A stretch of DNA of 64,000 nucleotides from positions 16,463-80,462 of the forward strand of contig CAMVRE010000001.1 of assembly GCA_947169825.1 (NCBI GenBank), given 5' to 3'. A program made the position numbers and the translations under genes. The number at the start of each line of letters is the position of its first letter. The first letter of the stretch is position 1. This DNA is from an uncultured Verrucomicrobiota bacterium. GTDB lineage: Bacteria > Verrucomicrobiota > Kiritimatiellia > RFP12 > UBA3636. The notes beneath the pieces were generated by a model. It had not been told where the DNA came from and made no database searches. It saw only the letters and a program-made list of their open reading frames with translations. Below, in pieces: positions 7,164 through 64,000 of the stretch.

Positions 7164-7361
7164 TCGTTGGTTGCGTAAACACGCGATACATTCTATCAAA
7201 TTGTCCTGCCGCGAGCAAGCGAGCGCGCTTGCCATAGTATTGGTGTTCGTGCGACTGCAATCGTTCCATGCCAGTTCTCCTGTGGAAAGGGATTGGAGTC
7301 GCCGCTTATGGATGGTGAACGACCGAACGTTCACGAACGACGACATCAAAGGACCAGAGAC

Positions 7362-24900: not shown

Positions 24901-25181
24901 CGCTGGTCGAGCGACCGAAGAAAAGCGGCGTGCAGCTCGTGCTGCTCTTCCGCGACTACGGACGGGCGTGCCAGGACGCCAAGGGCCTGCTCTCGGTCTG
25001 CGACCTGCGCATCGGAGACATGACGCTCTCCGAACCGGCGAAGTTCCTCGGCTTCGAGGGAATCGGGCCGAGGGAGGTTCCGGCGCTCTCCCCGACCAAG
25101 GCCGTGCTGATCGACCGCGACGCCGACGGACCGGCCGTGTTCCGGCCGTTCGCGCAATCGAAAGGGGGCGCGCAATGGTAG
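21963..25181 (+). CDS. FtsK/SpoIIIE-family ATPase (single ATPase domain) with N-terminal coiled-coil region
   Basis: Walker A LLGGSTGSGKTNLLHVLI, Walker B RILLVVDEFQRLF, and GRSAGIHLLMATQTVNGL. GAAGGA RBS. No TM segment apparent. Confidence 0.85.
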   Translation: MKNDIRETNDEIRRLVGALDASLDGIPAGEVAREAALKARAGKLDGEIVGLLAKAGFTRETAGAGAFDSLRREASERAAERAGREGEASDAATRAAAVRAEIAGLDADIESAKARQKALTDRIDALTAEIRNRWIVEDIWHWIFGDEAKAEKARAEGARAAVRNELDVLLGSLHEKEERRNALAAEESDLRRQEAELDARIGENAARQNAFRNAVATAREHGKVLAELSDLKGRQEKRAAERAQAGRDAARELGERVADILGAQPRLADLGPDGYGRAETFPKAFSFGRYRFSADGHDWCVPRILPFPMPKSLVFPATEAGTAAVREFLLRAFQCLPPESLEITVCDPVRMGASLNGFQGLLDNRKPVAGGKFPTVAPEIEEALSRLHGAIETFLQEECTGEIRDWASYNAAHPDRPKTYRILAMFDLPDQLTDAAAGYLAKILENGPKCGILPLLALDPAKLDPRRHAALKAALGAFAWDAGRMQGIFGGFPVLRNARLAAEEPCALPDDAGVSAALSGLCAGYAERDRFAGSLESVLRDEAFWGATSENGLEATIGWEEESRAPVRFSLSDQPPVHALLGGSTGSGKTNLLHVLIHSLCHRYSPRELNLYLLDYKEATEFNAYARPLLPHAAGIATESDVEYGISVLRHLERERIRRSELFKEAGTVDIRGYRRKTGEALPRILLVVDEFQRLFEGAKAGAEAETLFRNLLKLGRSAGIHLLMATQTVNGLQNIVSIRTFLGQMACRLALKCTPEDSATLLAMDNLAASTLPGPPHGILNNDLGKKSANVRLCIPLADPDGCKAHLEELSAAAAERGEGVSDCRVFRGTALPEPPADGGLVSPEEIRGPRIAVGRTADFEEEPVFADLDGKNLLVVARRSDIAGGLRRAIARGIAAGAGTKEVLLYSENPEDWNALDGAANIVRVDDEWSGENLDEFAARDAARKVVVLDGFENLRGLRSAGYVPSRSGPSAAERLRALVERPKKSGVQLVLLFRDYGRACQDAKGLLSVCDLRIGDMTLSEPAKFLGFEGIGPREVPALSPTKAVLIDRDADGPAVFRPFAQSKGGAQW

Positions 25182-25344
25182 GGCGCGACGGCCCGTCGCG
25201 CCGGGCGCCGCGGCGCGTTCGGCGAACGCGCCCTACCGGGATCGGAATCCTCCTTGTGTTTCGGTGGAAAACCCGGAGCGTTGGGATTTATAGAAAGTGA
25301 AAGGACGACGGCCGTCCCGCGAAACCAACCGAAACGATAGCGAC

Positions 25345-26562
25345 ATGAACGAAGAGAACCTCCCCGCCCTCCCGATTCCGCACTGCCCCGTGATGATCGT
25401 CCTCGACACGTCCCACAGCATGTGGGGCCGCGGGATGCAGGACCAGCAGGACGCGCTCAAGGCCTTCCACAAGACCCTGGGCGCGCTCGAATTCGCCGAC
25501 TCGCGGATCGAGATCGCGGCGGTCGGGATGGGCGAGAACCTGAAGGTGCTGCAGCCCTTCGCGCCGCTCGCGGAGTCGAACGTCGCGAATCTGGCGATCC
25601 GTCCGAAGGGCGACACACCCGTTGGCGGCGCGCTCCGGCTCGCGCTCGGCGAACTGCGCCGGAGGACGGACGAGCTCCGCCGCGCCGGCGAGGGCGTCGC
25701 CACGCCGCAGCTGCTGGTTCTCTCGGACGGGAAGTCCTCGGACGACTTTTCCGCCGAAGCCGCCGAGATCCGCCGGGAAGCGGCGGCGGGCCGGCTCGTC
25801 TGCCGGGCCGTCGCGACCGGCGGGAGTCCAGACCTCGGCGCGCTCGCGCGCATCGCGGGGGAGAAGGTCGACCGTCCCGACTACGGAGGCCTCCGCGAGA
25901 CCTTCGCGAGGATCGGCGAAAAAGTGTCGCAGACCTACGAGGACGCCGTTCCCGACCTTCTGATGGCCGAGACCCGGCCGACGCCGAGCGGAACCTACGT
26001 CGAGGAGAAGCCCCGCCCCCTCGGCAACTCCGGTCGCCTGTCCGGCCGCACGGTGCTCGTGGACGGAACGAACGTCTGCTTCTGGGGACGGAACGGAACG
26101 ACAGCGAGCCTTGCGCCCGTCCTTGCGCTCGCCCGGGCGCTCGACGCGGAGGGAGCGGACTGGCAGGCGTGCTTTGACGCCTCCACGCGCCATCATCTGG
26201 CCCGGGGAGGAACCGGCGACGAGGCGGCCTACGAGAGACTTCTCCGCAGCCGTCCCGAGCGCTTTTCGGAGGCGCCGGGTGGAACCTGCGCCGACGTGTT
26301 TCTGCTCCAGGCCGCCGCCGCCGACCCGAAGACCGTCGTCGTCTCGAACGACTTCTACCGGGACCACGTGGCGGAGTATCCGTTCGTCAAGGACAAGAGC
26401 CGGTTCTTCCGCGGCGGCGTGTTCCGCGACCAGCTCTGCATCCCGAATCTCGGGATTCGCTGCGCGCTGATCCGGACGAGCGCGGCGTCTGACGCCGAAA
26501 TCCGTGAAACGGAGAAAAAGAGAACCTCCTGTGGAATCTTAGACGAGGGATTCCTTATCTAG
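25345..26562 (+). CDS. von Willebrand factor A domain fused to Zc3h12a-like NYN ribonuclease domain
   Basis: MIDAS VMIVLDTSHSMWG...GDTPVGGAL...LLVLSDGKS. C-terminal VLVDGTNVCFWGR...KTVVVSNDFYRDHVAEYPFVKDKSRFF aligns with MCPIP1 (DGSNVAMSHG...IVVSNDTYRDL...SFVNDKF). The start may be GTG 25297 instead. Confidence 0.8.
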   Translation: MNEENLPALPIPHCPVMIVLDTSHSMWGRGMQDQQDALKAFHKTLGALEFADSRIEIAAVGMGENLKVLQPFAPLAESNVANLAIRPKGDTPVGGALRLALGELRRRTDELRRAGEGVATPQLLVLSDGKSSDDFSAEAAEIRREAAAGRLVCRAVATGGSPDLGALARIAGEKVDRPDYGGLRETFARIGEKVSQTYEDAVPDLLMAETRPTPSGTYVEEKPRPLGNSGRLSGRTVLVDGTNVCFWGRNGTTASLAPVLALARALDAEGADWQACFDASTRHHLARGGTGDEAAYERLLRSRPERFSEAPGGTCADVFLLQAAAADPKTVVVSNDFYRDHVAEYPFVKDKSRFFRGGVFRDQLCIPNLGIRCALIRTSAASDAEIRETEKKRTSCGILDEGFLI

Positions 26563-26620
26563 GACAGAAGGACGCATCAAACCAACCCGAATTCGAACAA
26601 CAACAAGAAGGAACAAAACC

Positions 26621-27883
26621 ATGTCTCTCCTCCTCCTCGGCGGTCTCGCCATTGCCGGAATTGCGGCCTGGAACGCGCTCTCGGACAGTTCGTCCGGCTC
26701 GACGCCGGCCGCGCCGCCCCCGGCTCCCGTTCGCCGTCCCCGTCCGTCTCGTTCAGCGGGTTCCTCCCGTCCTTGCAAGGCGACGCCGACGCGCCCCCGG
26801 ACGCCGAAGGCGCTTCCTCCGACGGGCGGCGGATGGCTCGCCCAGTGCGGAGCGAGCGCCGTCCCGACCGGCGGGCCGACGACGGTCTACGACCCCAGCG
26901 GAAACCCGCTCCAGCTCTCCGCCGCCGACGAACTCGCCAGCGGCGGCGAGGGGACCGTCTACCGCTGCCCCGGGCACGACGGGTTCGTCATCAAGCTCTA
27001 CAAGCGCGACATCGTGGACAACCCGGAGAAACAGAAGGCCGTCGTGGGGAGACTCCGCGACATGCTCGTCATCGAGGCGCTCCGCAAGGATCGCGACATC
27101 GCCTGGCCGCAGATGCCCGTCTATGACGCGAACAAGCGCGTGGCGGGGTTCGTCATGCGCGCCGTTGACGGAGCGTCCTTCCGTTCCCTTCAGGGCGCGG
27201 CCCAGATCCAGCGTCTGTTCCCCGAATGGGATCGGAAGGACCTGGCCCTCGTGGCGCGCAACTTCCTCGACAAGATGCAGCTTCTTGCGGACCACGGCGT
27301 ACTCGTGAACGACTTCAACCCGGCGAACTTCATCGTCGGAAGGGACCACAGGGTCCGCCTCATCGACTGCGACAGCTTCCAGATTCCCTCCGCGAACGGA
27401 GGCTCTCCGCATGTCACGACGACCTACTTCGCCTCTCACTCCGCGCCGGAGCTCCTTCGCGATCCCTCGCTTCTCAAGCGGTCCCGCGGGCCGGAGCAGG
27501 CTCGGTTCGGTGCAGCCATCATCGTGTTCCAGCTCCTCATGTGCGGACTGCATCCCTACAGCCACAAGAACGGAGGAACTCCCGAGGGAAACCTCAAGGC
27601 CGGGCAATGCCCGCTGGGAATCGGTTCGGGATGCTCGATTCCGACTGGCTGGTACAATCTCCTTAGCTACCTTCCCTACACGATGATGGAGAAATTCATC
27701 CGGATGTTCCGTGACGGGCACGGCGACCTCTCGGTTCGACCGACTCTGGCGGAACTGAGAGCGGAAGTGGAGAAGTTCCTCTTCGTCATGAAGAAAGATC
27801 CGCTCCGCAGGGAACTTGCCCCGGCGACGCCCAAGGTGAAATCGGACTCGAACCAAGGTCCTTGGAAAAAACCGGCGGCCTAG
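26621..27883 (+). CDS. Membrane-anchored Ser/Thr protein kinase-like protein
   Basis: N-terminal TM LLLLGGLAIAGIAAW. Gly-rich loop LASGGEGTVYRC, then VIKLYK, HGVLVNDFNPANFIV (catalytic loop) and LIDCDSF (DFG-like). Confidence 0.75.
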   Translation: MSLLLLGGLAIAGIAAWNALSDSSSGSTPAAPPPAPVRRPRPSRSAGSSRPCKATPTRPRTPKALPPTGGGWLAQCGASAVPTGGPTTVYDPSGNPLQLSAADELASGGEGTVYRCPGHDGFVIKLYKRDIVDNPEKQKAVVGRLRDMLVIEALRKDRDIAWPQMPVYDANKRVAGFVMRAVDGASFRSLQGAAQIQRLFPEWDRKDLALVARNFLDKMQLLADHGVLVNDFNPANFIVGRDHRVRLIDCDSFQIPSANGGSPHVTTTYFASHSAPELLRDPSLLKRSRGPEQARFGAAIIVFQLLMCGLHPYSHKNGGTPEGNLKAGQCPLGIGSGCSIPTGWYNLLSYLPYTMMEKFIRMFRDGHGDLSVRPTLAELRAEVEKFLFVMKKDPLRRELAPATPKVKSDSNQGPWKKPAA

Positions 27884-27967
27884 TGGAAAACCCGGAGGCC
27901 CAGAACTTAATCTAGGTAAAGGAACGAACAACCAAGCTTCAACAAACCCACAAACCCCGAACAGACC

Positions 27968-28663
27968 ATGAAAGACTACGCCAACAACAACACCCTCGAC
28001 GTCACCAACCCCGCGCCGCGCTGCCCGGTGATTCTTCTCCTCGACACGTCCGGAAGCATGGACGGCTCGCCGATCCACGAGCTCAACCAGGGCGTCCGGC
28101 AGTTTCTGGAGGAGACGAGGAGCGACGAGGCGGCCGGTATGAGCGTCGAACTGGAGGTCATCACTTTCGACGACCGCGCCTCGCGCGTCATTCCCTTCCG
28201 GTCCATCGCGGGCGTGAACGGCCTGCCTTCGTTCGGAGCCGGCGGAATGACGAGCATGGGCGCCGCGCTGCGGATGGCGACGGCCGATCTCAAGGCCCGC
28301 CGCCACCTCTACCGCCAGACCGGCGTCTCGAGCTACCGTCCGTGGGTGGTGCTGATGACGGACGGCGGTCCCAACGACGAGTGGCGGAACGCCGCCCGTG
28401 AGATGCGCGAGATGGGGGAGCGAGGGCGCATCCAGTACATCGGCATCGAGATCGGCCATCAGGTGGACCATCGGACGATGTGCCAGATCCTGCCGGCGAA
28501 TCCGGGGCCCGTTCGTCTGCAGGGGCTGAAGTTCAAGCAGTTCTTCCGCTGGCTCACGGACTCCCTGCGCAGCGTCTCCCGCAGCACGCCGGAGCAGGAG
28601 AGCCAGGTGCGGTTCGGCGACATCCGGTCATGGGCCGACCTGGCGAGCCTCGAGAACCTCTAG
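27968..28663 (+). CDS. vWA domain protein (TerY-like)
   Basis: PVILLLDTSGSMDG (MIDAS DxSxS), then SMGAAL...VVLMTDGGPND. Confidence 0.8.
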   Translation: MKDYANNNTLDVTNPAPRCPVILLLDTSGSMDGSPIHELNQGVRQFLEETRSDEAAGMSVELEVITFDDRASRVIPFRSIAGVNGLPSFGAGGMTSMGAALRMATADLKARRHLYRQTGVSSYRPWVVLMTDGGPNDEWRNAAREMREMGERGRIQYIGIEIGHQVDHRTMCQILPANPGPVRLQGLKFKQFFRWLTDSLRSVSRSTPEQESQVRFGDIRSWADLASLENL

Positions 28664-28685
28664 GCCGATGGAAGGAACGAAGAAA

Positions 28686-29792
28686 ATGACCGACAGGAAC
28701 CACCCGATTTCGCGCGGCTTCGCTGCCTCCGTCCCCGGCGCGGGGCACATCCGGTACGCCACGCCGTGCCAGGACGCCTCCGGTGCGATCCTTGCGCCGC
28801 GTCCGGCGGCCATCGTCTGCGACGGCCGCGGCAGCGCGAGGCTCTCGCACTTCGGAGCGCAGGGCGCGGTTCGCGCGTTCTTCAGCCAGCTGAGCGTCCT
28901 CGAGCCGTTCCTCGCCGGCGTGCTCGACCGGGAGGCGCCCCAGGAGAAGTGGGACGGCCTCTGCCGACTCCTCTACCGGACGCTCCTTCAGGTCAAGCTC
29001 GACCTCGCGGCGGAGCGCGGCGGCGAGGAGAAGGACTTCGACTTCACCGTGGCGTTCGCCGTGGCGGGGACCGTCTCGATCGGCTGCTTCCAGGTCGGCG
29101 ACGGGGCCATCGTCCTGCGGAACGGAGGCGTCTGCAGGACCGCGTTCGAGCCCGACAAGGGCGAGTTCGCGAATCAGACTCAGTTCCTCCGTCCGGGCGG
29201 CGATGCCGCGGGAAAGTTCCACGCCAGGCTCTTCCCCGCCGAAGAGAACGAGGGCGTGGCGATCACCTCGGACGGCCCCGAGCACCTCATGTTCCGCCAG
29301 CCCGCGATGGAGCCCGGCCCCATCTTCGGACAGCTTTTCGACGATCTTGCCGCGGGCGAACTCTGCGAGCAGGACCTCCGCGACTATCTCACGAGGGCCG
29401 TCTGGTCGTCCGATCCGCGCGGTTCGGACGACCGGTCCATCGCGGTGCTCCTTCCGAACGCCGCGCAAACTGCAGTCCATCCGACGAAAGCGAAAACGCC
29501 CGACCGGGGCCGTCCGGAACCGCCGCCCGAGCCGATCGGGAACGAAGACGACGATGGACCGGAGGACGATTCAATGGAACCGAACGAAATCCGGAACGAG
29601 GCGGCGCCGTCCGCCGAACGCGCCACGTGCGCTCCGCCGCGTCGACCCGTCTCCCCCTGGATCGCCGCCGCCATCCTCGCCGCCTGCATTCTCGTCGCCG
29701 TGGACACGATCCGCTCCTGGTGGAAGCCGTGCCTCGAATGGAGCGCCGCCCCGACCGCCGCGTACGCCCAGCCGGAGAACGACAACCTCTAG
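28686..29792 (+). CDS. PP2C-family Ser/Thr protein phosphatase-like protein with C-terminal TM anchor
   Basis: SVPGAGHIRYATPCQDAS...IVCDGRGSARLSHFGAQ...FAVAG...GDGAIV. GGAAGGAA sits upstream of ATG 28686; an alternative ATG at 28668 lacks an RBS. C-terminal WIAAAILAACILVAV. Confidence 0.7.
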   Translation: MTDRNHPISRGFAASVPGAGHIRYATPCQDASGAILAPRPAAIVCDGRGSARLSHFGAQGAVRAFFSQLSVLEPFLAGVLDREAPQEKWDGLCRLLYRTLLQVKLDLAAERGGEEKDFDFTVAFAVAGTVSIGCFQVGDGAIVLRNGGVCRTAFEPDKGEFANQTQFLRPGGDAAGKFHARLFPAEENEGVAITSDGPEHLMFRQPAMEPGPIFGQLFDDLAAGELCEQDLRDYLTRAVWSSDPRGSDDRSIAVLLPNAAQTAVHPTKAKTPDRGRPEPPPEPIGNEDDDGPEDDSMEPNEIRNEAAPSAERATCAPPRRPVSPWIAAAILAACILVAVDTIRSWWKPCLEWSAAPTAAYAQPENDNL

Positions 29793-29810
29793 CCAGAAAG
29801 GACCATCGCC

Positions 29811-30401
29811 ATGCCGCGCACCACATTCCTCTCCAAATTCCATGTTTCGCAAACGGAGGCCTTCCGGGCCTTCGACGCCGTCTGCAGGGAGCTGCGCGAC
29901 GTCGGGCTGATGAAGGGCGGCGGAGAGCTGGAGGGGGTCGAATGCGAATGGCATCCCGAGGGAATCGGTTCGTTCGGCGTCTCGGGGTGCGGACTCTCGG
30001 ACTTCGCGACCGAGGGCTACTACTGGAACCGGACGATCCATCTGCCCGCCTGGGGGTTCTGGTTCGGCAGCGCCGACGGCATCCGCAACGTCGTGCGCCA
30101 CGAGTTCGGACACGCGCTCGCGGACATCCGTCCGAAGCCGTTCAAGGGGGCCGTCTTCCGCAGGGCGTTCGGCGCTCCGTACGGCCGACGCAAGGTCGCC
30201 CGGTTCCGCTCCGACTGGGAGGAGTCCTGCGTCTCGAAGTACGCTTCGTCCTGCACCCAGGAGGACTGGGCCGAGACGTTCATGCTCTTCCTGCGGAACA
30301 AGGGGCGGATGCCCGCCCGCTTCCGCGGTCTGCCCGACATCGAGGCCAAGTGGGACGCGACGCATTCGATTCTTTCGAAGATGGGGTGGAACCGAGGTTG
30401 A
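29811..30401 (+). CDS. Putative Zn-metallopeptidase (HExxH)
   Basis: NVVRHEFGHALADI. Confidence 0.55.
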   Translation: MPRTTFLSKFHVSQTEAFRAFDAVCRELRDVGLMKGGGELEGVECEWHPEGIGSFGVSGCGLSDFATEGYYWNRTIHLPAWGFWFGSADGIRNVVRHEFGHALADIRPKPFKGAVFRRAFGAPYGRRKVARFRSDWEESCVSKYASSCTQEDWAETFMLFLRNKGRMPARFRGLPDIEAKWDATHSILSKMGWNRG

Positions 30402-36926: not shown

Positions 36927-39830
36927 CTACTTCCCGACGGGAGCGACGGCGATTGCAGAGAGGACGCCGGGGCGGGAGGCGTCGTAGGAGACGCGGAAGG
37001 AGACGGGCGAGGTGCCGTCGTAGGCGAAGTCGGCGGTCGCGCCGTCGGCAGAGATCGAGAGACCCTCGACGCCGTCGGCGCCCGCGAGGCGAAACGGCGA
37101 GGGCGCGGCGGGGGAGGGCGAGGGGGAGCCGAGCGGGTCGGAGAGGATGGCGGCGGCGATGTCGGGCTTCTCCTCCAGGATCGTCGCGCGGTAGCGTCCG
37201 GCGGGGAGCGCAAGCGGGAGCCACGGGCCCTCGACGGCGGTGCACGGCGGGTGCGGCCCGGGCGCGAAGGCGAGATCGTCCGGGGCGGGGACGAAGCCGC
37301 CGGTCTTCTCGTCGGGGATGCGCGCAAGCGTTGTCGAACCGAACTCGTGGTAGAGGTCGACGGCGGGAAGGCGGAGCGCGCCGTCGGAGTCCGGAGCGGG
37401 CAGGCCACCGTGCGCGGGATCGCGCGCGTAGGCGACGTAGGAGATGCGCGCGTCGCCCGGGGTGGAGAGGTGCGTCCAGAGGTTGGAGGAGGGGTCGAGG
37501 GCGGGGAGGAAGGCGAGGCGCCAGTCCGGGGCCGGGGCCCCGGGCGCGGAACCGGCTTCGCGGCTTGCGCGGAAGAGGTTGGTGGAGGAGTGGAGCGAGC
37601 CGTCGGCGTCCGTGAAGGAGGAGACGAGGACGAGGTCCTTGCCGGCCTCGGCGCGGACGAGCCAGCCATAGCCCTCGCGGTGGATTTCGGCGAAGGAGCG
37701 GACCTTCGTGGCGGCGTTCGCCTGGGGCGGGCGCACGCCCCAGTGGCGGGTGGGCGGCTCAAGCATCGAATGCTGAATGCTGAATGCTGAATGCTGAATG
37801 GAGGAAGCTTGTTCTGTCGTCGTGCATTCTGCATTCTGCATTCTGCATTCAGCATTGCCTTCGCGGTCGCAGACCGCGAAGGCCCAGGCGCCGTCGGCGC
37901 GGGCGAGGAGACGGAGCCTCGGGTTGGCGAGGTGGCGGCGGAGGGTGGCGCCGAAGGGGAAGAGGGAGACCTTGGCGGGGAAGGCGTCCTCGTGGAGGAT
38001 CACGTGCGTGACGCCCGTCTTGCGGAGGGCGGCGTATTGGTCGTCGGTGAAGTCGCCCTCGGTCATCGTCTCGAAGCGACGGAAGACGCGCTCGACGTAG
38101 GCGGGCTCCGTGACGGCGGCGTAGCCGTTGAGCATCCGCAGCCCGGCGCGCATGGCGTGGTATTCGTAGATCGAGCTGTAGGAGGAGTCGCCGGGCCAGA
38201 TCGGCAGGACGAGCGCGCGCGGCACGAGCCCGCGCGCCTCGGCGTCGGAAACGGCGGCCGCGTAGGCGGCGTTGGGGCCGGGAAGGAGGCATACGCCCGC
38301 GCGCATGCCGCGCGAGGCGGAGAGGAGGACGGCGAGCACCAGCGCCGCGGCGGGAAGCGCGCGGAGGAGGGGACGGCGGCGCGGCGCCCGGCGGAGCGCC
38401 TCCGCCGCGGAGGCCGAGGCGCGTTCGCGCTGGCCGGAGGCGAGGCGCGAGAGCGCGAGCGGCGCGGCGGCGCGGCGCAGGAGCGGCGCGAGGGAGGCGA
38501 GGGAAGCCCACGCGAGCGCGAGGAACGCCGCGTAGAGCGTCGGGAGGAGGCAGAGGACCTTGAGCGGCTGGCGCACCAGGCGGAAGGGCGGGACGAGCCG
38601 GCGGAGGGCGCGCAGGAGGAGGGCGTCCCCGGGGCCGTTCGTCCCGAGCGCGAGGAAGAAGGCGGCGACGATCGCCGCGCCGAGGAGGAGCCCGGCGAGC
38701 GCGGCGCGGAGCGCGGCGGTGTCGCGCGGGGCGGCGGACTCGGCGCGGGTCGAGAAGCGCGGGTCGAAGACGATCGCCGGCGAGCGGAACGGCGCGGTGC
38801 GGCGCCGGCGCAGGAGGCGCCAGGCCAGGACCAGGGCGGCCGCGAGCAGCGCGAGGCCGGCGAGCGAGAGCAGCGCCGCGATCGCCCAGCCCTGGTGGAG
38901 CTGCTCGGGCGAGTGGCTGAAGTAGGCCGGGTCGAAGAAGGCGTGCCAGTCGGGCGAATGGCGCGCGAGATCCTGCATCGAACGGCCGCCGGCGGCGTCG
39001 GTCGAGGCGTAGGCGCGCTTGGCGGCCCGGCCGAGCGCGGCGCAGACCGCGCCGCCGAGCAGGATCGGCGAGAGGGCGCGGACGAGCCGAAGGAAGCGGC
39101 GGCGCGAGGCGAAGGGGTTCGCGGGCGAGCGCAGGAGCGCGACGAGGCCCCAGAGCGGGAGGGCGAGCACGGCGAAGAGGAAGCAGTGCAGGTCGGCCGC
39201 GTAGCAGCAGAGCACGAGCGCGCCCGCGAGGACGCCGCCGCGGAGGCGCCGGTCGCGCACGGCGATGTCGACGCCGAGCGCGACGCCCGGGACGAGCCCC
39301 ATGCCGAATCCGGTGGGGGAGCCGCCGGCCAGGACGACCCAGCGGTAGGGGACGCACGTCGCGAGCGCGGCGCAGGCGAGCGCCGCGCCGGGGCCGGCGC
39401 CGCAGCGGCGGGCGAGGGCGTGGCAGAACGCGAGCCCGAGGAGGATCGAGAGCCACTGGGCGAGGTTCCAGGCGAAGGCGTCGGACGCCCCGGCGGCGCG
39501 CGCGAGGGAGTAAGGGAGGGCGAACGGAAAGTAGCACAGGTCCGGGCGCGGCGGGCGGGCCTCGTCGGACGTATTGAACTCCCAGAGGTTGCGGAACCAG
39601 GGGAGGCGGCCGCGGAGGTAGGAGTCGAAGAGGTCGAAATGGTAGAGCAGCTGCAGGTGGTCCCCCTGCACGAGCGTGCGCGCGGGGGCGTCCCCGGCGT
39701 AGCAGGTGTAGGCGATGCCGCGGGCGACGTGCGCGGGGAGCGGCCGGAGGAACGCGGCCCAGAGCGAGAGCGCGAGCGCGGCGAGCGCCAGGGCGGCGCG
39801 GAGGCGGGGATGTCGGCGCAGGGGCGTCAT
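36927..39830 (-). CDS. Large polytopic membrane protein with C-terminal soluble domain; carries an in-frame palindromic (GAATGCT)n element
   Basis: At least 12 hydrophobic helices in the first ~640 aa. ATG at 39830 (MTPLRRHP). The ORF has no stop across the 37764-37859 hairpin, which encodes ...[30 protein letters not shown]... The C-terminal ~270 aa look like genuine coding sequence. Confidence 0.5.
37764..37859. repeat. Imperfect palindrome: (GAATGCT)x4.7, 22-nt spacer, (TGCATTC)x4.7
   Basis: Read directly: gaatgctgaatgctgaatgctgaatgctgaatgg...tgcattctgcattctgcattctgcattcagcatt. Confidence 0.9.
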
Positions 39831-39875
39831 GGCGGCGGATGATACCACGGCGTCCCCGCGGCGGGCAAGGGGCGC

Positions 39876-39904
39876 TTGCAGCGCGGCGGCGTTCGTGGTA
39901 TTCT
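39876..39904 (+). promoter_or_regulatory. Sigma70-like promoter candidate upstream of metK (TTGCAG-17-TATTCT)
   Basis: ttgcag cgcggcggcgttcgtgg tattct. About 115-nt leader to ATG 40019. Confidence 0.4.
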
Positions 39905-40018
39905 CCGCGCCCTCAGCACATCAAGAGCCGGGGTTCTTCCGCCCCGCCCCAACCGAGCGATCGCGCCACGGTGGATCCGGACAAGCCGGGATGCGCCCTG
40001 AACCGAAAGGGAAAAACC

Positions 40019-41203
40019 ATGCAACGCTACGTATTCACCTCCGAGGCCGTCTCGGAGGGCCACCCTGACAAGGTCGCCGACCAGATCAGCGACGCCATCC
40101 TCGACGCCGCGCTGGCGGTCGACCCCGCCGCGCACGTCGCGGCCGAGACGTTCGTCGGGCCGCGCTTCTGCGCGAACCTCGGCGAGGTCTCGGAGCACAT
40201 TCTGCCGAGGCTCGATCCCGAGACGATCGCGCGCGGCGTCGTCCGCGACATCGGCTACGACCGCCCCGAGGAGGGCTTCGACTGGAGGACCTTCGACTAC
40301 CAGAACCGCCTTGGCGCGCAGTCGCCCGACATCGCGCAGGGCGTCGACCGCGGCTCCGCCGACGAGCAGGGCGCGGGCGACCAGGGGATGATGTTCGGCT
40401 ACGCCGTGCGCGAGACGCCGGAGCTCATGCCCGCGCCGATCGCCTGGGCGCACCGCCTGATGCGCCGCTTCACGGACGAGCGCAGGTCCGGCCGCATCCC
40501 GTGGCTGCGCCCCGACGCGAAGAGCCAGGTGAGCGTCGTCTACGAGGACGGCCGCCCGGTCCGGATCGACGCGATCGTGCTCTCGCACCAGACGACGGAC
40601 GAACCGGACATCGACCGCGACATCCGCCCGGCGATCGAGGCCGTGGTGCGCGACGAGCTCGCCGGCACCGGGATGCTGGTTCCCGCCACGCGGTTCCACG
40701 TCAACCCGACCGGGCGCTTCGTGACGGGCGGGCCCGCCGGCGACTCCGGCCTCACCGGGCGCAAGATCGTCGTGGACACCTACGGCGGCGCGTGCCCGCA
40801 CGGCGGCGGCGCCTTCTCGGGCAAGGACCCGAGCAAGGTCGACCGCTCCGCGGCCTACTACGCGCGCTACGCGGCGAAGAACCTCGTCGCCGCCGGCGCG
40901 GCGGATCGCTGCGAGATCCAGGTGAGCTACGCGATCGGCGTGGCGGCGCCGACGAGCGTTCGCGTGCAGTTCTTCGGCACGGAGAAGGGCGGCGCCACGG
41001 AGGCGAAGGCCGTCGCGATGCTCGAGAGCGGCGAGGTCTTCGACTTCCGTCCCGGCCGTCTCGTCGCCGCGCTCGGGCTCCTCGCGCCGAGCGGCTGGAC
41101 CTACCGCGACACCGCGAGCGGCGGGCACTTCGGCCGCGCGGCGTTCCCGTGGGAGCGCCTCGACCGGGTCGACGCCGTCCGCGCCGCCCTCGGCCTGCGC
41201 TAG
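40019..41203 (+). CDS. metK: S-adenosylmethionine synthetase
   Basis: [73 protein letters not shown]. Confidence 0.92.
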
Positions 41204-44300: not shown

Positions 44301-44756
44301 GAGCCGCTCGCCCAGGTCTACCAGCGCAGCATCCAGACGCTGATGCAGATGAAGACCTACTCCGACGGCTCGTCGGTCTGGCCCGACGTCCAGTACGAGT
44401 GCGGCCACTACCTCAAGCTCTTCAAGGACATCGCCGACCCGAAGGAGGTCCTCAAGGTTCGCAGCGCCCTCAACGAGGCCACGCGCGAGATCAACGCCGC
44501 CGGCGAGGAAATGCCGCCCTCCGCCCTGATCGAGCTCATGGGCGACGCGCCCGACGTCGAGGCCATCCTTGCCACGCTCCCGGAGGACGCCTACCTCCCC
44601 AAGGAGGAGTCCGAGGAGGCCCCCGCGGAGGAGTCCTCCGAAGAGGTCGCCGACCCCGCCGAAGCGCCGGCCGAAGCGACCGAGGCCGCCGAGGCGGCCC
44701 CCGCCGAAGAGGCGGCGGAGGAAGCCCCCGCGGACGAGCCCGCCGCCGAGGAGTGA
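41331..44756 (+). CDS. Large secreted TPR-like repeat protein with acidic C-terminal tail
   Basis: Signal peptide MPTTFRSSLRPLLAAAALAALVPVGARA. Many TPR-like helical pairs. C-terminal EEAPAEESSEEVADPAEAPAEATEAAEAAPAEEAAEEAPADEPAAEE. Confidence 0.7.
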   Translation: MPTTFRSSLRPLLAAAALAALVPVGARAQAAVSDQDAKILSQEMKYVDALNRAGFPDYADLVLRDIQAKYPAAKAKLKVKMLEQVLQLGKFDEAQAIIDKEPNQDAPETWAMKLTMADYLFARGRYDEAFATYNALFKKYGSAPPKEIVEFYVNSYYKFAQMLKFQKKDKEAADALEKLLAVAGLPADMKRPVLFDHAQTLVKVASEAGKGGAGGYITRANKSIEALLWTQDVWFGRSVALMAHIKVIEGKVDEAQKLVEDYMPMLVQLEEALIEAGKEDGEDYLGLSPIPEVRYLMGVMYQEEADKLVTQSKSEAGKKKTDLEDKAGELYGLALRELVNVYIKYPSYAWAIEAMSRHEQINKALDELGFEVADSTTPAQRAQVAKKQFESAHMFYHQNRFEEAIKQFETVLKSFPEVVPESIKALVVLAQAAVEYGESQEEEEAQQYWQLYSGAVAGYIADRFARSTKEGMTLAGDQLRSLQSFYATHNLPELSQQARSDFFRLYPEHPAAANTVMQEAERLYKDGSYEEAMPLYRLLMENYTKNAVSWPAQRRLADCYGKTGRPEEELNIRSNYLARVEHKRNPGNDLITAQYSYLKALRTLRANALREATLAYDEARRGEAKPAEEGKDPVEEAVVALKAANDGVRGMLNEYTKLIRRLTDKEQRAKFEVSAKQKDLNDQILQSALFDHAFCLSSLNQPEAQLPKYKQLAIKDYERILELFPKAQGVPIVLLQLGTLYSTIRTDDEAEAEANTKKASEYFDRLSADYPESEQAKNALYLQAKALMELGYRPEAIKKYGEMISTPGGKYTPLQLAKAAEELVAAKAWETAEKGFQAALAGAKPDDAALRNMIEMGLMQILVAQKKYTEAVPRLKKFLEDTPRFHRTADVLELLRTACVEAAVAEPDKKKRSLLFKDANDASAKLKAYRRGDRAALELQLQHGDIMEKQYKAAVDFKADDAEDILRSSANYYQRIITTFGANPKNAEILEPLAQVYQRSIQTLMQMKTYSDGSSVWPDVQYECGHYLKLFKDIADPKEVLKVRSALNEATREINAAGEEMPPSALIELMGDAPDVEAILATLPEDAYLPKEESEEAPAEESSEEVADPAEAPAEATEAAEAAPAEEAAEEAPADEPAAEE

Positions 44757-44789
44757 ATGCCGAATGCTGAATGCTGAATGCTGAATTCC
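44755..44789. repeat. (GAATGCY)x5 heptamer array overlapping stop codon of 41331-44756
   Basis: gaatgccgaatgctgaatgctgaatgctgaattcc. Confidence 0.9.
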
Positions 44790-44866
44790 TACGCACAAAA
44801 CTCCAACCGCCCATCTCCAATCTCGCTCCCGTAACCCTTCAACCTTTCAACCCAAACTCCCCACCC

Positions 44867-45678: not shown

Positions 45679-45759
45679 CAATGCTGAATGCTGAATGCCG
45701 AATGCCGAATGACAGACCGACTTTAAACTTTAAACTTTAAACCCTTCAACCTTTCAACC
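45679..45759. repeat. Composite repeat: (GAATGCY)x5 + (ACTTTAA)x3 + cccttcaacctttcaacc leader box
   Basis: caatgctgaatgctgaatgccgaatgccgaatgac...actttaaactttaaactttaa acccttcaacctttcaacc. The leader box is also present at 44834-44852. Confidence 0.85.
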
Positions 45760-58331: not shown

Positions 58332-58332
58332 G

Positions 58333-58490
58333 GTCGTGATGGTCGTGATGGTCGCGATGGTCTCGATAGTCGCGATGGTCTCGATAGTCGCGATGGTCTC
58401 GATAGTCGCGATGGTCTCGATAGTCGTGATGGTCGGACCATCCAGACCATCGGACCATCCAGACCATCAGACCATCAGACCAGATTCTCC
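58333..58490. repeat. Tandem repeats: (GATGGTCGTGAT)x2 + (GATGGTCTCGATAGTCGC)x4 + (GGACCATCNA)x4
   Basis: Read directly. Occupies the whole spacer between the DUF721-like start and the purM stop. Confidence 0.9.
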
Positions 58491-59590: not shown

Positions 59591-60055
59591 CTATTCGGGG
59601 CGGACGCGGGACTCGCTGCCGCTCACGATGAGGCGGACCGGCTGCCCGACGTAGAACGAGTCCTTGCCGGCGGTCTGGACGACGATGCGCTCGGAGCCGT
59701 CGGCGAGCTTGACCGTGAGCTCGAGGCCGTTGTTCGTCCCGGTGGCGCCCTTCTCGATCGCGGCGCCGGCGAGGGCGCCGGCGATGCCGCCGAGCGCGCC
59801 GCCGACGGTGTGGCCGCGGCCGCCGCCCATCGTGGAGCCGATCGCCGCGCCGGCGACCGCGCCGCCGATGCCGCCGAGCGTGCCGTCGGTGCCTTCGATC
59901 TTGACCTGCTCGACGCGGGTCAGGGTGCCGTGGTAGACGGCCTGCTGGGCGCGCGCGCCGTCGCGCGAATAGGTGGAGCCGGAGAGCTCGGAGGCGCAGC
60001 CGGCGGAGAGGAGGAGGGCGGCCAGGGCCGCGAGAAGGGGGGTGGTGCGTTTCAT
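59591..60055 (-). CDS. Glycine-zipper (SlyB/Pcp-like) outer-membrane lipoprotein
   Basis: Lipobox LLSAGC. GGIGGAVAGAAIGSTMGGGRGHTVGGALGGIAGALAGAAI. Confidence 0.7.
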   Translation of the reverse strand: MKRTTPLLAALAALLLSAGCASELSGSTYSRDGARAQQAVYHGTLTRVEQVKIEGTDGTLGGIGGAVAGAAIGSTMGGGRGHTVGGALGGIAGALAGAAIEKGATGTNNGLELTVKLADGSERIVVQTAGKDSFYVGQPVRLIVSGSESRVRPE

Positions 60056-60231
60056 GGGTGGGTATTCTAGACGATTGTCGCGGGCGTTTCAAGTGGCGCG
60101 CTGCGGCCCGCCGCGGCGCGCACGGTCCTTTGACGAATCTCCCGCTCCGTTTATTCACGGGCGCGCACGGCCGCCACCCGTTTTCCGGTCGAGTCCGCCG
60201 CCCCGGCGGCCACGCGGCTTGCGAAACCGCC

Positions 60232-61653
60232 CTAGTGCGCGTGGCGGGAGCCGCCGCCGGGGCCGCCGCCGGGCGGGGAGACGGTGCACTTCCACGAGTT
60301 GGTGGCGAGCCAGCGCCCGCCGCCCTCGCGGAACGCGGGAATCTCCCATCGCGCGAGCGCCGCGCACCAGGCGCAGCCCGGCGCGAGAGCGATCGGCCCG
60401 CGCTCGAGATAGGGCGGGAGGTGGTCGGTCCGGTGGCGGCGCCACCGCAGGTCGAAGCTCCCGCCCGCGGGCGCGGAGGAGGCGTCGAGCGGGATGAGCC
60501 GCACGTCGCGGAAGACGGGCAGCACGACGGGCGAGACGGTCGGCGGCGCGCGGCGGCCCTCGATCTCGAGGCATCCGAACGGCTTGGCCGCGCCGATCCA
60601 GAGCATCGGCCCGGAGGCGTCGCCGCCCTCGCCGAGCGCGCCGAGGCGCGCGAAGGGGTTCTCGACGCGCATCGCCGCGTCGGCGCCGGCGTAGTCGTAT
60701 TCCTCCCGCAGCTCGCCCTCGAGCGGCATCGAGGGGTCCTTCATCGCGTCCCAGCCGCCCCACGCGCCGGCGTCCCAGCCGATCCACGTGCCGAGGAGCT
60801 CGTTCGTGCCGGGTCCGGGGCGCGGCGCCTCGGCGGAGACGCCTCCGAACATCTTCTCGACGCCCGCCGCGGCGAGCATTCCGCCGAGCGTGAGAGGAAC
60901 CGGTCGCAGATGCAGCCCGAGCAGCTCGGAGCCCGGGGCCGGATCGTCGTCCGCCTCGGGGAGGGCCGGCCACCAGCGGAAGTCCGAGTAGCCCTCCAGG
61001 AGCCCCGGCGCGCGGCGGTAGAACCAGCACCAGTCGCGGCCGAGGACCGCGTCGTAGAACGCGGGGTCGAGCAGCCAGTGCGCGCCGGAGGGGTCGGTCA
61101 GGAACGCGGCGTTGTCGACGCCGGCCGCGACGCCGCCCTCGGCGATCGCCTCGAGCGCGTCGGCGTAGTCGTCCCACGCGCCGGGCCAGGGCTCGGGCAT
61201 CGCGGTGGAGCCGTCGCCGAGGCGCGCGCCGTATTCCTCGCGCGCGGTGCGGGCGCAGTCCAGGACGAACTCCTTGAAGTCCGGGTTCGACGGCGCGCCG
61301 TTGAGCATCGCGGCCTGCTGCGCGGCGGCGACGCCGGCGAGCGGCCCGGCGAAGAGCAGGCGGAGCTGCGCGTTGGTGACCGCCTCGACCGCGGCGTGGT
61401 CGAGCGAGGCGAGCGCGAGCGCGTGGAAGAGGTTGAGCTCGCCCTCGAGGTCGAGCGCGGTGGCCTGCCAGCGCGCGGCGGCGAGCGCGGCGGCGTCGCC
61501 CGCGTTCTGCGTCTTGTCCTTGGCGAGCACCGCGTGGTGGACGTCCGCGAGCCACAGCGCCGCGACGAGCAGCGCGACCGCCGCGAACAGCACGAGCAGG
61601 ATCACCTGCCCGCGCCGCCCGTCGCCGTCCGTCTGTAGTCTTGCGTCTGACAT
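60232..61653 (-). CDS. TadG-like / Tad pseudopilin-family protein (putative Flp pilus assembly)
   Basis: N-terminal TM RRGQVILLVLFAAVALLVAALWLA. Located in the flp-tadE context. Large Ala/Gly-rich extracytoplasmic region. Confidence 0.5.
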   Translation of the reverse strand: MSDARLQTDGDGRRGQVILLVLFAAVALLVAALWLADVHHAVLAKDKTQNAGDAAALAAARWQATALDLEGELNLFHALALASLDHAAVEAVTNAQLRLLFAGPLAGVAAAQQAAMLNGAPSNPDFKEFVLDCARTAREEYGARLGDGSTAMPEPWPGAWDDYADALEAIAEGGVAAGVDNAAFLTDPSGAHWLLDPAFYDAVLGRDWCWFYRRAPGLLEGYSDFRWWPALPEADDDPAPGSELLGLHLRPVPLTLGGMLAAAGVEKMFGGVSAEAPRPGPGTNELLGTWIGWDAGAWGGWDAMKDPSMPLEGELREEYDYAGADAAMRVENPFARLGALGEGGDASGPMLWIGAAKPFGCLEIEGRRAPPTVSPVVLPVFRDVRLIPLDASSAPAGGSFDLRWRRHRTDHLPPYLERGPIALAPGCAWCAALARWEIPAFREGGGRWLATNSWKCTVSPPGGGPGGGSRHAH

Positions 61654-61655
61654 AA

Positions 61656-61793
61656 GACCGTGTGACCGTGTAACCGTGTGACCGTGCGACCGTGTGACCG
61701 TGTAACCGTGTGACCGTGTAACCGTGTGACCGTGCGACCGTGTGACCGTGCGACCGTGCGACCGTGTGACCGTGCGACCGTGTGACCGTGCGA
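61656..61793. repeat. (GACCGTGY)x17 octamer tandem array forming the entire tadE-like/tadG-like intergenic spacer
   Basis: gaccgtgtgaccgtgtaaccgtgtgaccgtgcgaccgtg... abuts the tadE-like stop (61794) and ends 2 nt before the tadG-like ATG (61653). Confidence 0.9.
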
Positions 61794-62372
61794 CTATTCG
61801 AGATAGAGCCCCGCGTGCTCCCCCTGGGTCGCCGTCGCCTCCATCGCGACGCGCGGGACGCCCTCGCCATCGAGCGGCGCCCACGGGACGGCGAAGCGCG
61901 CGAACGGCATCCAGAGCGGCGCGTCGTGCCGGACCGTGAGGTCGAGCGTGCCGTTGCCGAAGAGCGAGCCGGATTCGCGGACGGAGAGCGTCCCCTTCTC
62001 CCATTCCTCGTAGTTCAGGACCCAGTCCGCGCGCTCGTGGTTCTCGGCGGAGAGGTAGTCGGGGATGCGGGCGCGCTCGAACGCGGCCGGCGAGCCGTCC
62101 GCCGGCGTCCAGCCGAGATCCTCCGCGAGGAGCTTCCCCGAGACGGGGATCGCCGCGACGCGCGCCGCCTTCGTCGCCATCCAGGAGTTGAATCCGACGG
62201 CGCGTGCGCGCGCGGCGCGCGACGCCGCGTGGTGCAGGATCTCGCGCCCGCCGAGCGCGAGCGCGGCCTGCAGGAATCCGAAGAGCAGGACGCAGAGCAC
62301 CAGGAGCGCGAGCAGCGTCTCGAGATAGGCCTGTCCGGCGCGGCGCGGCGGCGGGACGGCGCGGCGAATCAT
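61794..62372 (-). CDS. TadE-like pilus assembly protein
   Basis: N-terminal RRAGQAYLETLLALLVLCVLLFGFLQAALAL (TadE motif). Confidence 0.6.
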   Translation of the reverse strand: MIRRAVPPPRRAGQAYLETLLALLVLCVLLFGFLQAALALGGREILHHAASRAARARAVGFNSWMATKAARVAAIPVSGKLLAEDLGWTPADGSPAAFERARIPDYLSAENHERADWVLNYEEWEKGTLSVRESGSLFGNGTLDLTVRHDAPLWMPFARFAVPWAPLDGEGVPRVAMEATATQGEHAGLYLE

Positions 62373-62391
62373 GGCGGCGGCGGGGGAAGGG

Positions 62392-62637
62392 CTAGTCTTC
62401 CTTGACGCCGTCCTTTTCCATGCTCTTGAGCTTGTCGATGGAGCGGCCTTCCTCGGCGGCGTCCCGGGCCCTGTCGGCGTTCTTGGTCGTCGTGAGCGAG
62501 TTCACCGCGCCGGAGGTCTTCTCCGTGACGGTGTCGCCGAGGATGCCGAACACCGCGAGGGCGGCGATGGCGATGACGACGACGATGATGATGTATTCGA
62601 CCATGGTCTGGCCGGAGCGGCGGGTGTCGCGTTTCAT
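62392..62637 (-). CDS. Flp/Fap-family pilin
   Basis: Leader MKRDTRRSG, then QTMVEYIIIVVVIAIAALAVFGILG (G/XXXXEY Flp motif). Confidence 0.7.
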   Translation of the reverse strand: MKRDTRRSGQTMVEYIIIVVVIAIAALAVFGILGDTVTEKTSGAVNSLTTTKNADRARDAAEEGRSIDKLKSMEKDGVKED

Positions 62638-62660
62638 GGCGTGTGGCGGGGTGTTCGGGG

Positions 62661-62837
62661 TTACGGGTATTCGGACGAGGCGAGGGAGACCGAGCGGTCG
62701 CCGTTCTCGCGGAGCGCGCCGCCGAGGGCGGCGAGCGCGAAGGCGAGCCCGATCAGCACGGCGAACGCGAGGACGTATTCGACCATGGTCTGCCCGGAGC
62801 GAGAGCGGAGGGCGAACGGACTCGGGGTTGTCTTCAC
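62661..62837 (-). CDS. Flp/Fap-family pilin (second copy; GTG start, probably leaderless)
   Basis: VKTTPSPFALRSRSG / QTMVEYVLAFAVLIGLAFALAALGG. A TTGTCC-18-TACACT promoter-like box ends 7 nt before the GTG. The N-terminal part of the listed 133-aa ORF overlaps the tRNA and was discarded. Confidence 0.5.
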   Translation of the reverse strand: MKTTPSPFALRSRSGQTMVEYVLAFAVLIGLAFALAALGGALRENGDRSVSLASSEYP

Positions 62838-62938
62838 GGCGGCAAGTGTAGCACACCCGCCCCCGCGCGGACAAGACCCGATTTTGCGCGGGCGGGAGAA
62901 GAAGGACCCCCGGGCCGAGACGGTCCGGGGGTCCAAGT

Positions 62939-63013
62939 TGGCTCCGGTGGCTGGATTCGAACCAGCGACCAAGGGATTAACAGTCCCCTGCGCTACCGCT
63001 ACGCTACACCGGA
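62939..63013 (-). tRNA. tRNA-Asn (anticodon GTT), CCA encoded
   Basis: Reverse complement: TCCGGTG TA GCGT AGCGGTA GCGC A GGGGA CTGTTAA TCCCT TGGTC GCTGG TTCGAAT CCAGC CACCGGA G CCA. Cloverleaf with 7-bp acceptor stem, TPsiC loop TTCGAAT and anticodon loop C-U-GUU-A-A. Confidence 0.88.
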
Positions 63014-63143
63014 ATGCGGCCTTCCGCGCGCGCGGCGCGGAAAACGGGGCGGACGATACCAAAAGCCCCCTTGCGAGTCAAGCAAGAATTCACAAAAGAG
63101 AGAGGTTTGCACCGCGGCGGCGGGCGTGCTAGAATCGCATCCC

Positions 63144-64000
63144 CATGAAACCGATCCCCGAAATCCTCGCCGACAACGCCCGCCTCTATCCGGACGAGAC
63201 CGCCCTCGTCGAGATCAACCCCCAGGAGCTCGAGGCCCGCCATACGACCTGGAAGGAGTATTCGCTCGTCGAGACGGCCCCGGCCGACGACGCCTTCCGC
63301 TCCGAGATCACCTGGGCGCAGTTCGAGGAGAAGGCCAACCGCTTCGCCAACCTCCTGCTCACGCGCGGCGTGAAGAAGGGCGACAAGGTCGCGATCCTCC
63401 TCATGAACGGCCTCGAGTGGCTCCCGATCTACTTCGGCGTCCTCCGCACGGGCGCGCTCGCGGTGCCGCTCAACTTCCGCTACGCCGCCGACGAGATCAG
63501 GTACTGCGTCGACCTTGCGGACGCCTCCTTCCTCGTCTTCGGCCCCGAGTTCATCGGGCGCGTCGAGCAGATCTCCGACCAGCTCCCGAAGGTGAAGGCC
63601 CTCTTCTACGTCGGCGGCGACTGCCCGTCGTTCGCCGAGAGCTACCGCGACCTCGTCCCGCACTGCTCCTCGCGCCGCCCGGAGATCCCGCTCTCGCTCG
63701 ACGACGACGCGGCGATCTACTACTCCTCCGGCACGACCGGCTTCCCGAAGGCGATCGTCCTGCGGCACCGCGCGCTCGCCCAGAGCTGCGAGGTGGAGCA
63801 GGCCCACCACGGCCAGACGCACGACGACGTCTTCCTCTGCATCCCGCCGCTCTACCACACCGGCGCGAAGATGCACTGGTTCGGCAGCTTCCTCGTCGGC
63901 GGCCGGGCGGTCCTGCTGCGCGGCGTGAAGCCCGAGTGGATCGTACGCGCGGTCTCCGAGGAGAAGTGCTCCATCGTGTGGCTCCTCGTGCCGTGGGCGC
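63144..64000 (+). CDS. AMP-dependent synthetase/ligase (acyl-CoA synthetase family), 3' truncated by window end
   Basis: AMP-binding motif IYYSSGTTGFPKAIV. ATG 63144 is preceded by a TTGCAC-17-TAGAAT promoter-like box. Confidence 0.8.

Follow-up and report, generated by a model that had tools for sequence, protein, structure and literature searches.

The stretch analysed here (the window) comprises 64,000 nt of a contig from an uncultured bacterium of the Kiritimatiellia and carries, on its minus strand, two Flp-type pilin genes followed by a TadE-like pseudopilin gene and a TadG-related gene. The spacer between the last two is made up of tandem octamers from end to end (Table 1). On the coding strand it reads TAG TCG (CACGGTYR)x17 T ATG, giving 140 nt from stop to start (8 × 17 + 4), and the array adjoins the TadE-like stop codon and ends 2 nt before the TadG-like ATG. 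Tandem Repeats Finder (TRF) returns one array at 61656-61794 (period 8, 17.4 copies, 88% matches, score 215). A two-unit pattern, GACCGTGYGACCGTGY, allowed up to two mismatches, has 16 matches in the window, all on the plus strand and all within the array, while dinucleotide shuffles contain a mean of 0.43 matches and none reached 16. The tandem repeat is thus confirmed and lies far beyond chance; TRF, pattern search and parsing of the units agree with the first-pass annotation, which had placed an array here as the entire tadE-tadG spacer. The sense strand of the array contains no ATG, GTG or TTG and no stop codon in any frame, which is why mechanically called open reading frames (ORFs) cross it. 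Those ORFs, with translations of the HTVTRSHG type, had been taken for artefacts, and rightly so: the spacer length modulo 3 varies among alleles, and in alleles of seven units the TadE stop codon stands in frame.

Table 1. Features of the tadE-tadG locus in the window (L numbers denote contigs and loci used for comparison)
Feature	Position	Strand	Basis
Tandem array, 17 octamers, sense CACGGTYR	61656..61793	-	TRF, pattern search and unit parsing
TadG-related gene, 473 aa, ATG 61653-61651	60232..61653	-	PF13400 Tad (TadE/G-like), 29 bits, cut-off 22.3
TadE-like pseudopilin gene, 192 aa, stop TAG 61796-61794	61794..62372	-	PF07811, 23.6 bits, cut-off 22.9
Flp-type pilin gene, 81 aa, processing motif G-QTMVEY	62392..62637	-	Gene-called on L001-L005; PF04964 match weak, below cut-off
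Second Flp-type pilin-like gene, 91 aa, SGQTMVEY, first in cluster	62661..62936	-	Gene-called on L001-L003
tRNA-Asn(GTT), directly upstream of cluster	62939..63013	-	ARAGORN; Rfam RF00005, 71 bits
Candidate sigma-70-like promoter, TTGACT-17-TATCGT	63053..63081	-	Consensus scan only

The length of the array differs widely between strains. Alleles were collected from contigs encoding an identical TadE, from loci with TadG homologues, from a sister metagenome-assembled genome (MAG; L017) and from JGI metagenomes. In the databases the nearest relatives are Kiritimatiellia, and the contigs that matched derive from gut-type metagenomes; six metagenome contigs encode the identical TadE protein. Eleven distinct alleles, with 2, 5, 6, 7 (four orders), 9 (two), 10 and 17 units, were obtained from about 13 assemblies belonging to one species group (Table 2). 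In all of them the spacer measures 8n+4 nt, so that its length modulo 3 is 0, 1 or 2 depending on the allele. The flanks, TAG TCG on one side and CACGGTCTT ATG on the other, are identical in every allele of at least five units, and the units next to the start codon (...CACGGTTA CACGGTCA CACGGTCTT ATG) recur unchanged in nearly all of these; the two-unit allele ends in ...CACGGTCCC ATG. The TadE protein is 100% identical across the alleles of 5, 6, 10 and 17 units, and the flanking DNA of the window is about 99% identical to that of L001-L003. Since unit number differs between such closely similar flanks, the array evolves far faster than point substitution accumulates. Invariant copy number, named in the first-pass annotation as one part of what would refute tuning by slippage, was sought by comparing strains; instead copy number proved hypervariable, ranging from 2 to 17 units among strains, as expected of slipped-strand mispairing. 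The tadG gene is intact in all alleles, with a dN/dS of 0.24-0.40 relative to the window copy, and is therefore probably expressed and useful at any array length; these values point to purifying selection whatever the number of units.

Table 2. Unit order in alleles of the tadE-tadG array (A, CACGGTCA; G, CACGGTCG; T, CACGGTTA; C, CACGGTCC; t, CACGGTCT)
Locus	Units	Order, stop to start codon
Window	17	A G A G G A G A T A T A G A T A t
L004	10	G G T G A A T A A t
L121	9	G G A A G A A A t
L122	9	L121 order with two point variants
L130	7	C A G A T A t
L131 / L133	7	A A T A G A t
L132	7	G A G A T A t
L017 (about 85% nt identity)	7	G C A A T A t
L005	6	G A T A aacggtta t
L002 / L003	5	G A T A t
L123 / L124 (TadG 92% identity)	2	tcg AACGGTCA CACGGTCC c; 20 nt
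L125 (TadG 90% identity)	0	Unrelated 22-nt spacer

Matches to PF07811 and PF13400 and two copies of the GQTMVEY motif mark the flp-tadE-tadG genes as a likely part of a Tad/Flp pilus cluster. The Flp motifs of both small ORFs were read from their translations, and a Pfam search of the second pilin-like gene gave no match. No vWA domain was found in the TadG-like protein by Pfam, and the scanned parts of the window yielded no tadA/B/C/Z or secretin gene. Exact look-up of the 473-aa protein returned no record. It has 535 homologues, mostly of 470-480 aa, one of which (53% identity) is named 'pilus assembly protein TadG-related protein [Kiritimatiellia bacterium]' at NCBI. These share an N-terminal layout in which a basic tail is followed by an invariant GQ and then by a transmembrane segment; the basic tail, G15-Q16 and the hydrophobic segment are present in all 35 homologues that were aligned. 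Relatives retain the ATG and the N-terminus M[SP]DAR[RL]QT whether or not they have the array, and codon 4 varies synonymously (GCA/GCC/GCT). Because this layout is conserved, the ATG is kept and the spacer is inconstant modulo 3, the ATG at 61653 is taken to be the real start. Two other starts were considered. Translation of the repeat as an N-terminal extension of TadG is ruled out by the inconstant frame, by the in-frame TadE stop of the seven-unit alleles and by the conserved ATG and N-terminus, and a GTG start at codon 17 is ruled out since it would delete the basic tail and GQ motif that are invariant in the family. Codons 2-10 of the gene are themselves heptamer-periodic (window 61605-61650; L125 1548-1590), with (C)CAGACG repeated three times in L125 and L123 and degenerate in the window, which suggests that the variable N-terminal tail of TadG also derives from a short tandem repeat.

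The leader that the array provides has no predicted structure. Folding of the array RNA is no better than that of shuffled sequences (z = +0.19 alone, +1.73 with flanks) and its centroid is unpaired; the DNA strand likewise folds no better than shuffles. When units were removed in silico from 17 to 0 in the native context, the opening energy of the region from -20 to +19 around the AUG stayed between 11.5 and 12.3 kcal/mol for 3-17 units, and the unpaired probability of the start region between 0.46 and 0.52. Rfam has no family match in the array region. A riboswitch-, attenuator- or hairpin-type element is ruled out, as folding is no better than in shuffles, and a hairpin of the kind found in repetitive extragenic palindromic (REP) or bacterial interspersed mosaic elements (BIME) does not fit the z values, the unpaired centroid or the lack of reverse-strand copies in the window. 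Inverted pairs of arrays do occur in other spacers of the window (37768-37856 and 58332-58474).

A consensus scan of 60000-63200 revealed no sigma-70-like match in tadE or the array, and tadG would therefore be co-transcribed with tadE. The only minus-strand matches are the one upstream of tRNA-Asn (Table 1) and another at 60092..60064, upstream of the next gene; the consensus scan disclosed no terminator associated with the array. As the array lies outside the ORF and no promoter match is near, copy number cannot shift the reading frame or promoter spacing, and it changes only how far the tadG start lies from the tadE stop (44-140 nt) and the length of untranslated RNA. Of the features expected of a phase-variable locus, a repeat tract in the tadG leader is present; a change in length acting through the frame, the -35/-10 spacing or the structure of the untranslated region was not detected computationally. 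The idea that unit number would alter spacing and structure is not supported on either count: there is no defined fold and the predicted opening energy is flat over 3-17 units, and with the ATG-proximal units fixed any fixed leader element would keep its distance to the start.

As to initiation, no 4-mer of AGGAGGT is present in the last 25 nt of the tadG leader. The absence of a conventional ribosome-binding site was thus correctly noted in so far as the leader has no Shine-Dalgarno (SD) sequence, but it is not exceptional, for SD-less starts prevail in the window: about 9 of 13 candidate starts examined there have no SD-like 4-mer, and CA-rich, SD-less leaders are usual.

Arrays of this kind are frequent both in the window and in the lineage. 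The count for the source genome, which covers its 64-kb window, is eight merged arrays of period 7 or 8 with at least three copies, where 30 Markov-simulated windows average 0.1. All eight lie at gene boundaries, including those at 14756, 37768, 37823 (inverse), 44754, 45680 and 45720/45735. In 80 Kiritimatiellia loci (447 kb) there are 15.7 arrays per 100 kb, or roughly one junction in six. Pattern-matched other loci, used as a density control, contain 7.0 per 100 kb, a value biased by the choice of genomes for their repeats, and the Markov null was used instead. A scan of contigs for (CACGGTYR)3 was permissive, with at least 114 stretches from many phyla, mostly irrelevant; the informative ones are L012-L014, L017, L021, L056 and L097. 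CACGGTYR occurs on at least five contigs of the sister MAG (L012, L013, L017, L056 and L097), on one of which the octamer fills the spacer from a bamA-like gene to the next gene in the GACCGTGT orientation (GACCGTGW; L056). In the window, the 143 nt from the stop codon of a purM-like gene (58475) to the ATG (58331) of a DciA-family gene (PF05258) are wholly tandem repeats, and at L131/L133 the corresponding spacer (7160-7270) is built of other units, among them GACCGTGW, which is the Tad octamer in the opposite orientation, and the dciA start is GTG, not ATG. Arrays end 0-2 nt from the start codon at tadG, dciA and 37766. No preferential association with surface genes was found, as arrays also precede dciA, the gene after bamA and many unrelated junctions. 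The tadE-tadG array is accordingly not special to tadG; it is one member of a lineage-wide class that fills spacers from stop to start codon.

Several of these arrays have features of their own. In the purM-dciA spacer (58332-58474, minus sense), TGGTCTGA-type units grow from the stop codon, and after them comes (CGCGACTATCGAGACCAT)n, which leads directly into the ATG; as inverse complements of each other (GATGGTC / GACCAT), the two halves could pair. (GAATGCT)4.7 at 37768-37800 and (TGCATTC)4.9 at 37823-37856 form an inverted pair 22 nt apart with a potential stem of 33 nt. This pair is read in frame within a mechanical ORF of 973 aa (36927..39848, minus strand) and ends 1 nt before the ATG at 37766; a Pfam search of both halves of the ORF gave no match. 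(TGAATGC)n occurs twice, once starting within the TGA stop at 44754 (44754-44786) and once 3 nt past the stop at 45677 (45680-45711), and (ACTTTAA)3 and CCTTTCAA-type units (44833-44853 and 45720-45759) precede the SD-less starts, at 44867 and 45777, of signal-peptide proteins. GAATGC-type heptamers occupy four sites in 8 kb of the window, and AATGCAG-type arrays are present in distant Kiritimatiellia (L156, L171). At L021 (2760-2830), (CACGGTCA)4 and (GAACCTTC)3 are read in frame within an ORF of 670 aa, a putative glycosyltransferase judging by its translation alone; these arrays appear to fall in a loop between the two halves of the ORF, as if arrays were occasionally tolerated in coding sequence.

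The same gene junction in more distant relatives, compared in 76 usable JGI loci, suggests how the array may have arisen. In about 46 of the 66 relatives with a locatable TadE end, tadE and tadG overlap or are separated by at most 12 nt. The overlapping junctions consist of GTGA/ATGA, usually after ...GGAGGACATGAACTG inside tadE, with GGAGGA in the 3' end of tadE. As most relatives are tight, the ancestral junction would have been of this translationally coupled, SD-assisted type. The window shares with the coupled genes of other Kiritimatiellia the pair itself, its order and the conserved N-terminal layout of TadG; those genes, however, overlap stop to start with GGAGGA, whereas in the window they stand 140 nt apart with no SD sequence. 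The window lineage thus seems to have lost the tight junction and then to have expanded a two-unit proto-repeat. Other junctions differ: L126 (TadG 81% identity) has a 59-nt junction of a different octamer, GGTGGTTR, L128/L129 (66% identity) one of 86 nt built of a nonamer, GTCTGGATG, and L127 (71% identity) one of 12 nt with GGAG. An array at the 5' edge of tadG is present in 10 of the 76 loci, which is about the background of roughly 0.16 arrays per junction. Some relatives carry arrays within the 5' coding end of a tadG-like gene (L146 3944-4010, L176 84-228, L193 1613-1700 and probably L178 595-640). These are heptamers or octamers, namely (GAGGACG)n, its inverse (CCGTCCT)n in L176, and (ACTGTCAA)n, and they occupy the variable tail, downstream of a start codon that is coupled to the TadE stop and upstream of the invariant GQ. 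Gain or loss of a single unit at this position would put the gene out of frame, as in a classical on/off design.

The reading favoured here, with a probability of about 0.6, is that the array is a variable octamer repeat driven by slippage, which uncouples tadG from tadE and has at most a graded effect on expression, without acting as an on/off switch. Replication slippage would have built it from a proto-repeat of two units when the tadE-tadG spacer was short, and it would keep expanding and contracting as a near-neutral spacer. A junction that is tight in most relatives has become an untranslated, weakly structured leader of 44-140 nt, free of start and stop codons, from which tadG would be translated by de novo, SD-independent initiation at the conserved ATG, as is presumably the case for most genes of the source genome. 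Given that the 3'-most units and the ATG context are constant and the predicted accessibility is flat, little or only a graded effect of copy number is to be expected. Such an effect would run via the distance from the tadE stop, with loss of coupling or re-initiation, or via the length of naked RNA. Tuning of TadG expression is possible, although the anatomy does not favour it, and on/off phase variation of tadG is unlikely.

Several points weigh against this account. Slippage alone gives no obvious reason why the same units occur at several loci and in distant relatives. At least six lineages have arrays, built of different units, at the 5' edge of tadG, and although their frequency is near background this could reflect selection for variability. 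Short-read assembly can collapse long arrays, and some short alleles are possibly under-counted. Finally, the claim of little effect is drawn from the anatomy and from a thermodynamic model.

Among the alternatives, a contingency locus comes nearest to accounting for the data. Unit number, altered by slippage, would then determine how much of the TadG-related minor pilin is made, and hence piliation, in the manner of a rheostat acting through the stop-start distance (coupling or re-initiation), through untranslated RNA exposed to Rho or RNases, or through transient structure, comparable to the tracts of hmw1A and uspA2. Copy number is indeed highly polymorphic among near-identical strains, the downstream gene belongs to a surface-appendage system, arrays arose independently at the tadG 5' edge in several lineages, and in L146, L176, L193 and possibly L178 one unit of the in-ORF array amounts to a frame shift; graded control by repeats in the 5'-untranslated region (5'-UTR) is documented for hmw1A (PMC12721329) and, in the summary given in PMC4679880, for uspA2. 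The tadE-tadG array, however, lies outside the ORF and any promoter-like element, next to an ATG whose adjacent sequence is constant over all lengths and whose predicted accessibility stays level over 3-17 units. It forms no stable hairpin and has no complementary partner like the G-rich arm of hmw. Its composition is only mildly biased towards C over G (C 35%, G 29%) and would make it a poor site for Rho loading. The same kinds of array also precede housekeeping genes, dciA and the gene beside bamA, and at the tadE-tadG junction they are about as frequent as the background rate. A rheostat is on these grounds doubtful, if still worth some weight.

A broader version would have the short tandem-repeat leaders of Kiritimatiellia serve as a general evolvable module for SD-independent expression, with the tadE-tadG array and the in-ORF arrays as a hypermutable rheostat or switch for the minor pilin. 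If so, arrays would be seeded from stop- or start-proximal sequence and spread as a few unit families; spacers without start or stop codons and poor in structure would be kept, and their length would set output via coupling distance or access of Rho or RNases, while the recurrence of units would suggest a binding protein dedicated to them or an expansion mechanism with sequence bias. We regard this as improbable.

Less plausible again is a sequence-specific cis-element, in which the octamers would form a multivalent platform bound by a protein with affinity for RNA or DNA (S1, Csp, or a CsrA-like, nucleoid or regulatory protein), through which ribosomes would be recruited or blocked. The recurrence of the octamer at several loci of the sister genome and of related GGTC/GACC-containing units in the window, the GAATGC-type heptamers at four window sites and in distant Kiritimatiellia, and the closeness of arrays to the starts of tadG, dciA and 37766 are what such a platform would lead one to expect. 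The octamer is, however, used in both orientations (CACGGTCR before tadG, GACCGTGW before dciA in L131 and before the post-bamA gene in L056), which argues against a role specific to the RNA sequence; orthologous junctions carry unrelated units or none, and the region has no Rfam match. Such an element is very unlikely. Least credible of all is an artefact, the array or its length differences stemming from mis-assembly of a low-complexity region: contigs L001 and L006 do break inside the array, and the 17-unit allele contains an internal exact repeat of 46 nt that k=31 graphs would leave unresolvable, but at least 13 independent assemblies, made with different assemblers, place the array at this junction between the same flanks, the internal exact repeats of the fully spanned short alleles (at most 22 nt, 31 nt in one scaffold assembly) lie below the k used, and the alleles differ in the order of units and not in number alone, an outcome that collapse of a single allele cannot give.

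Heptameric short tandemly repeated repetitive (STRR) sequences were reportedly described in cyanobacteria by Mazel and colleagues in 1990. Long simple sequence repeats (LSSR) with units of 5-11 nt, heptamers being the commonest, mark scattered lineages, according to later accounts of the survey by Mrazek (Mrazek, 2007, as cited in PMC4679880 and PMC11868660). With a period of 8, a length of 138 nt, many arrays and a recurring unit, the array described here belongs with LSSR and STRR. As far as those accounts go, the likeness extends to tandem units of 7-9 nt, a multitude of arrays, a non-triplet and mostly non-coding character, the presence of a unit at several loci and presumed slippage; the Kiritimatiellia arrays differ in often occupying the whole spacer from stop to start and in the coexistence of several unit families. 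Repeats of the heptamer TAACTGA lie within a few nucleotides of SD-less starts, including those of essential genes, in marine Beggiatoaceae, some Cyanobacteria and Bacteroidetes; their function is unknown (MacGregor, 2015; PMC4679880), and for the Beggiatoaceae a role as binding platform has been proposed (PMC4679880). Like these, the Tad array ends close to an SD-less start (2 nt before the ATG), and the repeats precede unrelated genes. In Beggiatoaceae, however, one heptamer dominates, mostly in one orientation and in 2-6 copies, whereas Kiritimatiellia use many units in both orientations, with up to 17 copies and length variation between strains.

Repeats that tune expression from a 5'-UTR provide a second comparison. 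In Haemophilus influenzae, the (ATCTTTC)n tract of hmw1A/hmw2A pairs with a G-rich arm to form a long hairpin cut by RNase III, and more repeats lead to less expression (PMC12721329); in Moraxella catarrhalis, an AGAT tract tunes uspA2, as summarised in PMC4679880. To the extent described in these sources, hmw1A and uspA2 resemble the Tad array in that a transcribed, non-coding, non-triplet repeat of strain-variable copy number precedes the start of a gene for a surface structure. The Tad array differs from hmw1A in having no complementary partner or predicted stable structure, in being intercistronic and not promoter-proximal, and in being known from sequence alone. The kind of repeat is thus already known, and it is Kiritimatiellia that had not previously been noted for it: a literature search for tandem repeats in Kiritimatiellia found no description, and the class is not mentioned in a short tandem repeat survey (PMC12699852).

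Taken by itself the locus is of modest interest, as a hypervariable marker for typing rumen and gut strains of Kiritimatiellia. Its natural allelic series (0, 2, 5, 6, 7, 9, 10 and 17 units) bears on how far an SD-less cistron can move from its upstream partner. The wider picture is of an uncultured gut lineage that appears rich in 7-9-nt arrays running from stop to start codon, which turn over between strains and recur independently at one junction. This makes Kiritimatiellia a test case, beside heterocystous cyanobacteria and Beggiatoaceae, for why such repeats accumulate and whether they matter for SD-independent translation. In practice, such arrays break short-read contigs, as at L001 and L006, and create spurious long ORFs.

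Some other features of the window may be recorded. The cluster begins 3 nt after the tRNA-Asn gene in the window, and in L121 (TadG 94% identity) a phage-integrase gene lies upstream and ExbD downstream (L121 1-1520); a neighbourhood that differs between such close relatives may mark an island or a rearrangement. A run of plus-strand genes at 21963-30401 encodes an FtsK/SpoIIIE-like ATPase (1072 aa), a vWA+NYN RNase, a protein-kinase-like protein, a vWA protein, a PP2C phosphatase and an Mx-type metallopeptidase, and resembles a cassette for conflict or signalling that has no relation to the Tad genes. A coding repeat of 108 nt (36 aa) is present in 6.8 copies at 17486-18238, in a stretch of lower G+C content at third codon positions (GC3), and is Sel1/TPR-like by its consensus unit alone. 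A match to the SAM-I/IV riboswitch (RF01725, 45.4 bits, gathering score 41.1) at 39913-40026 on the plus strand overlaps the start of the mechanically called plus-strand ORF 39839-41203.

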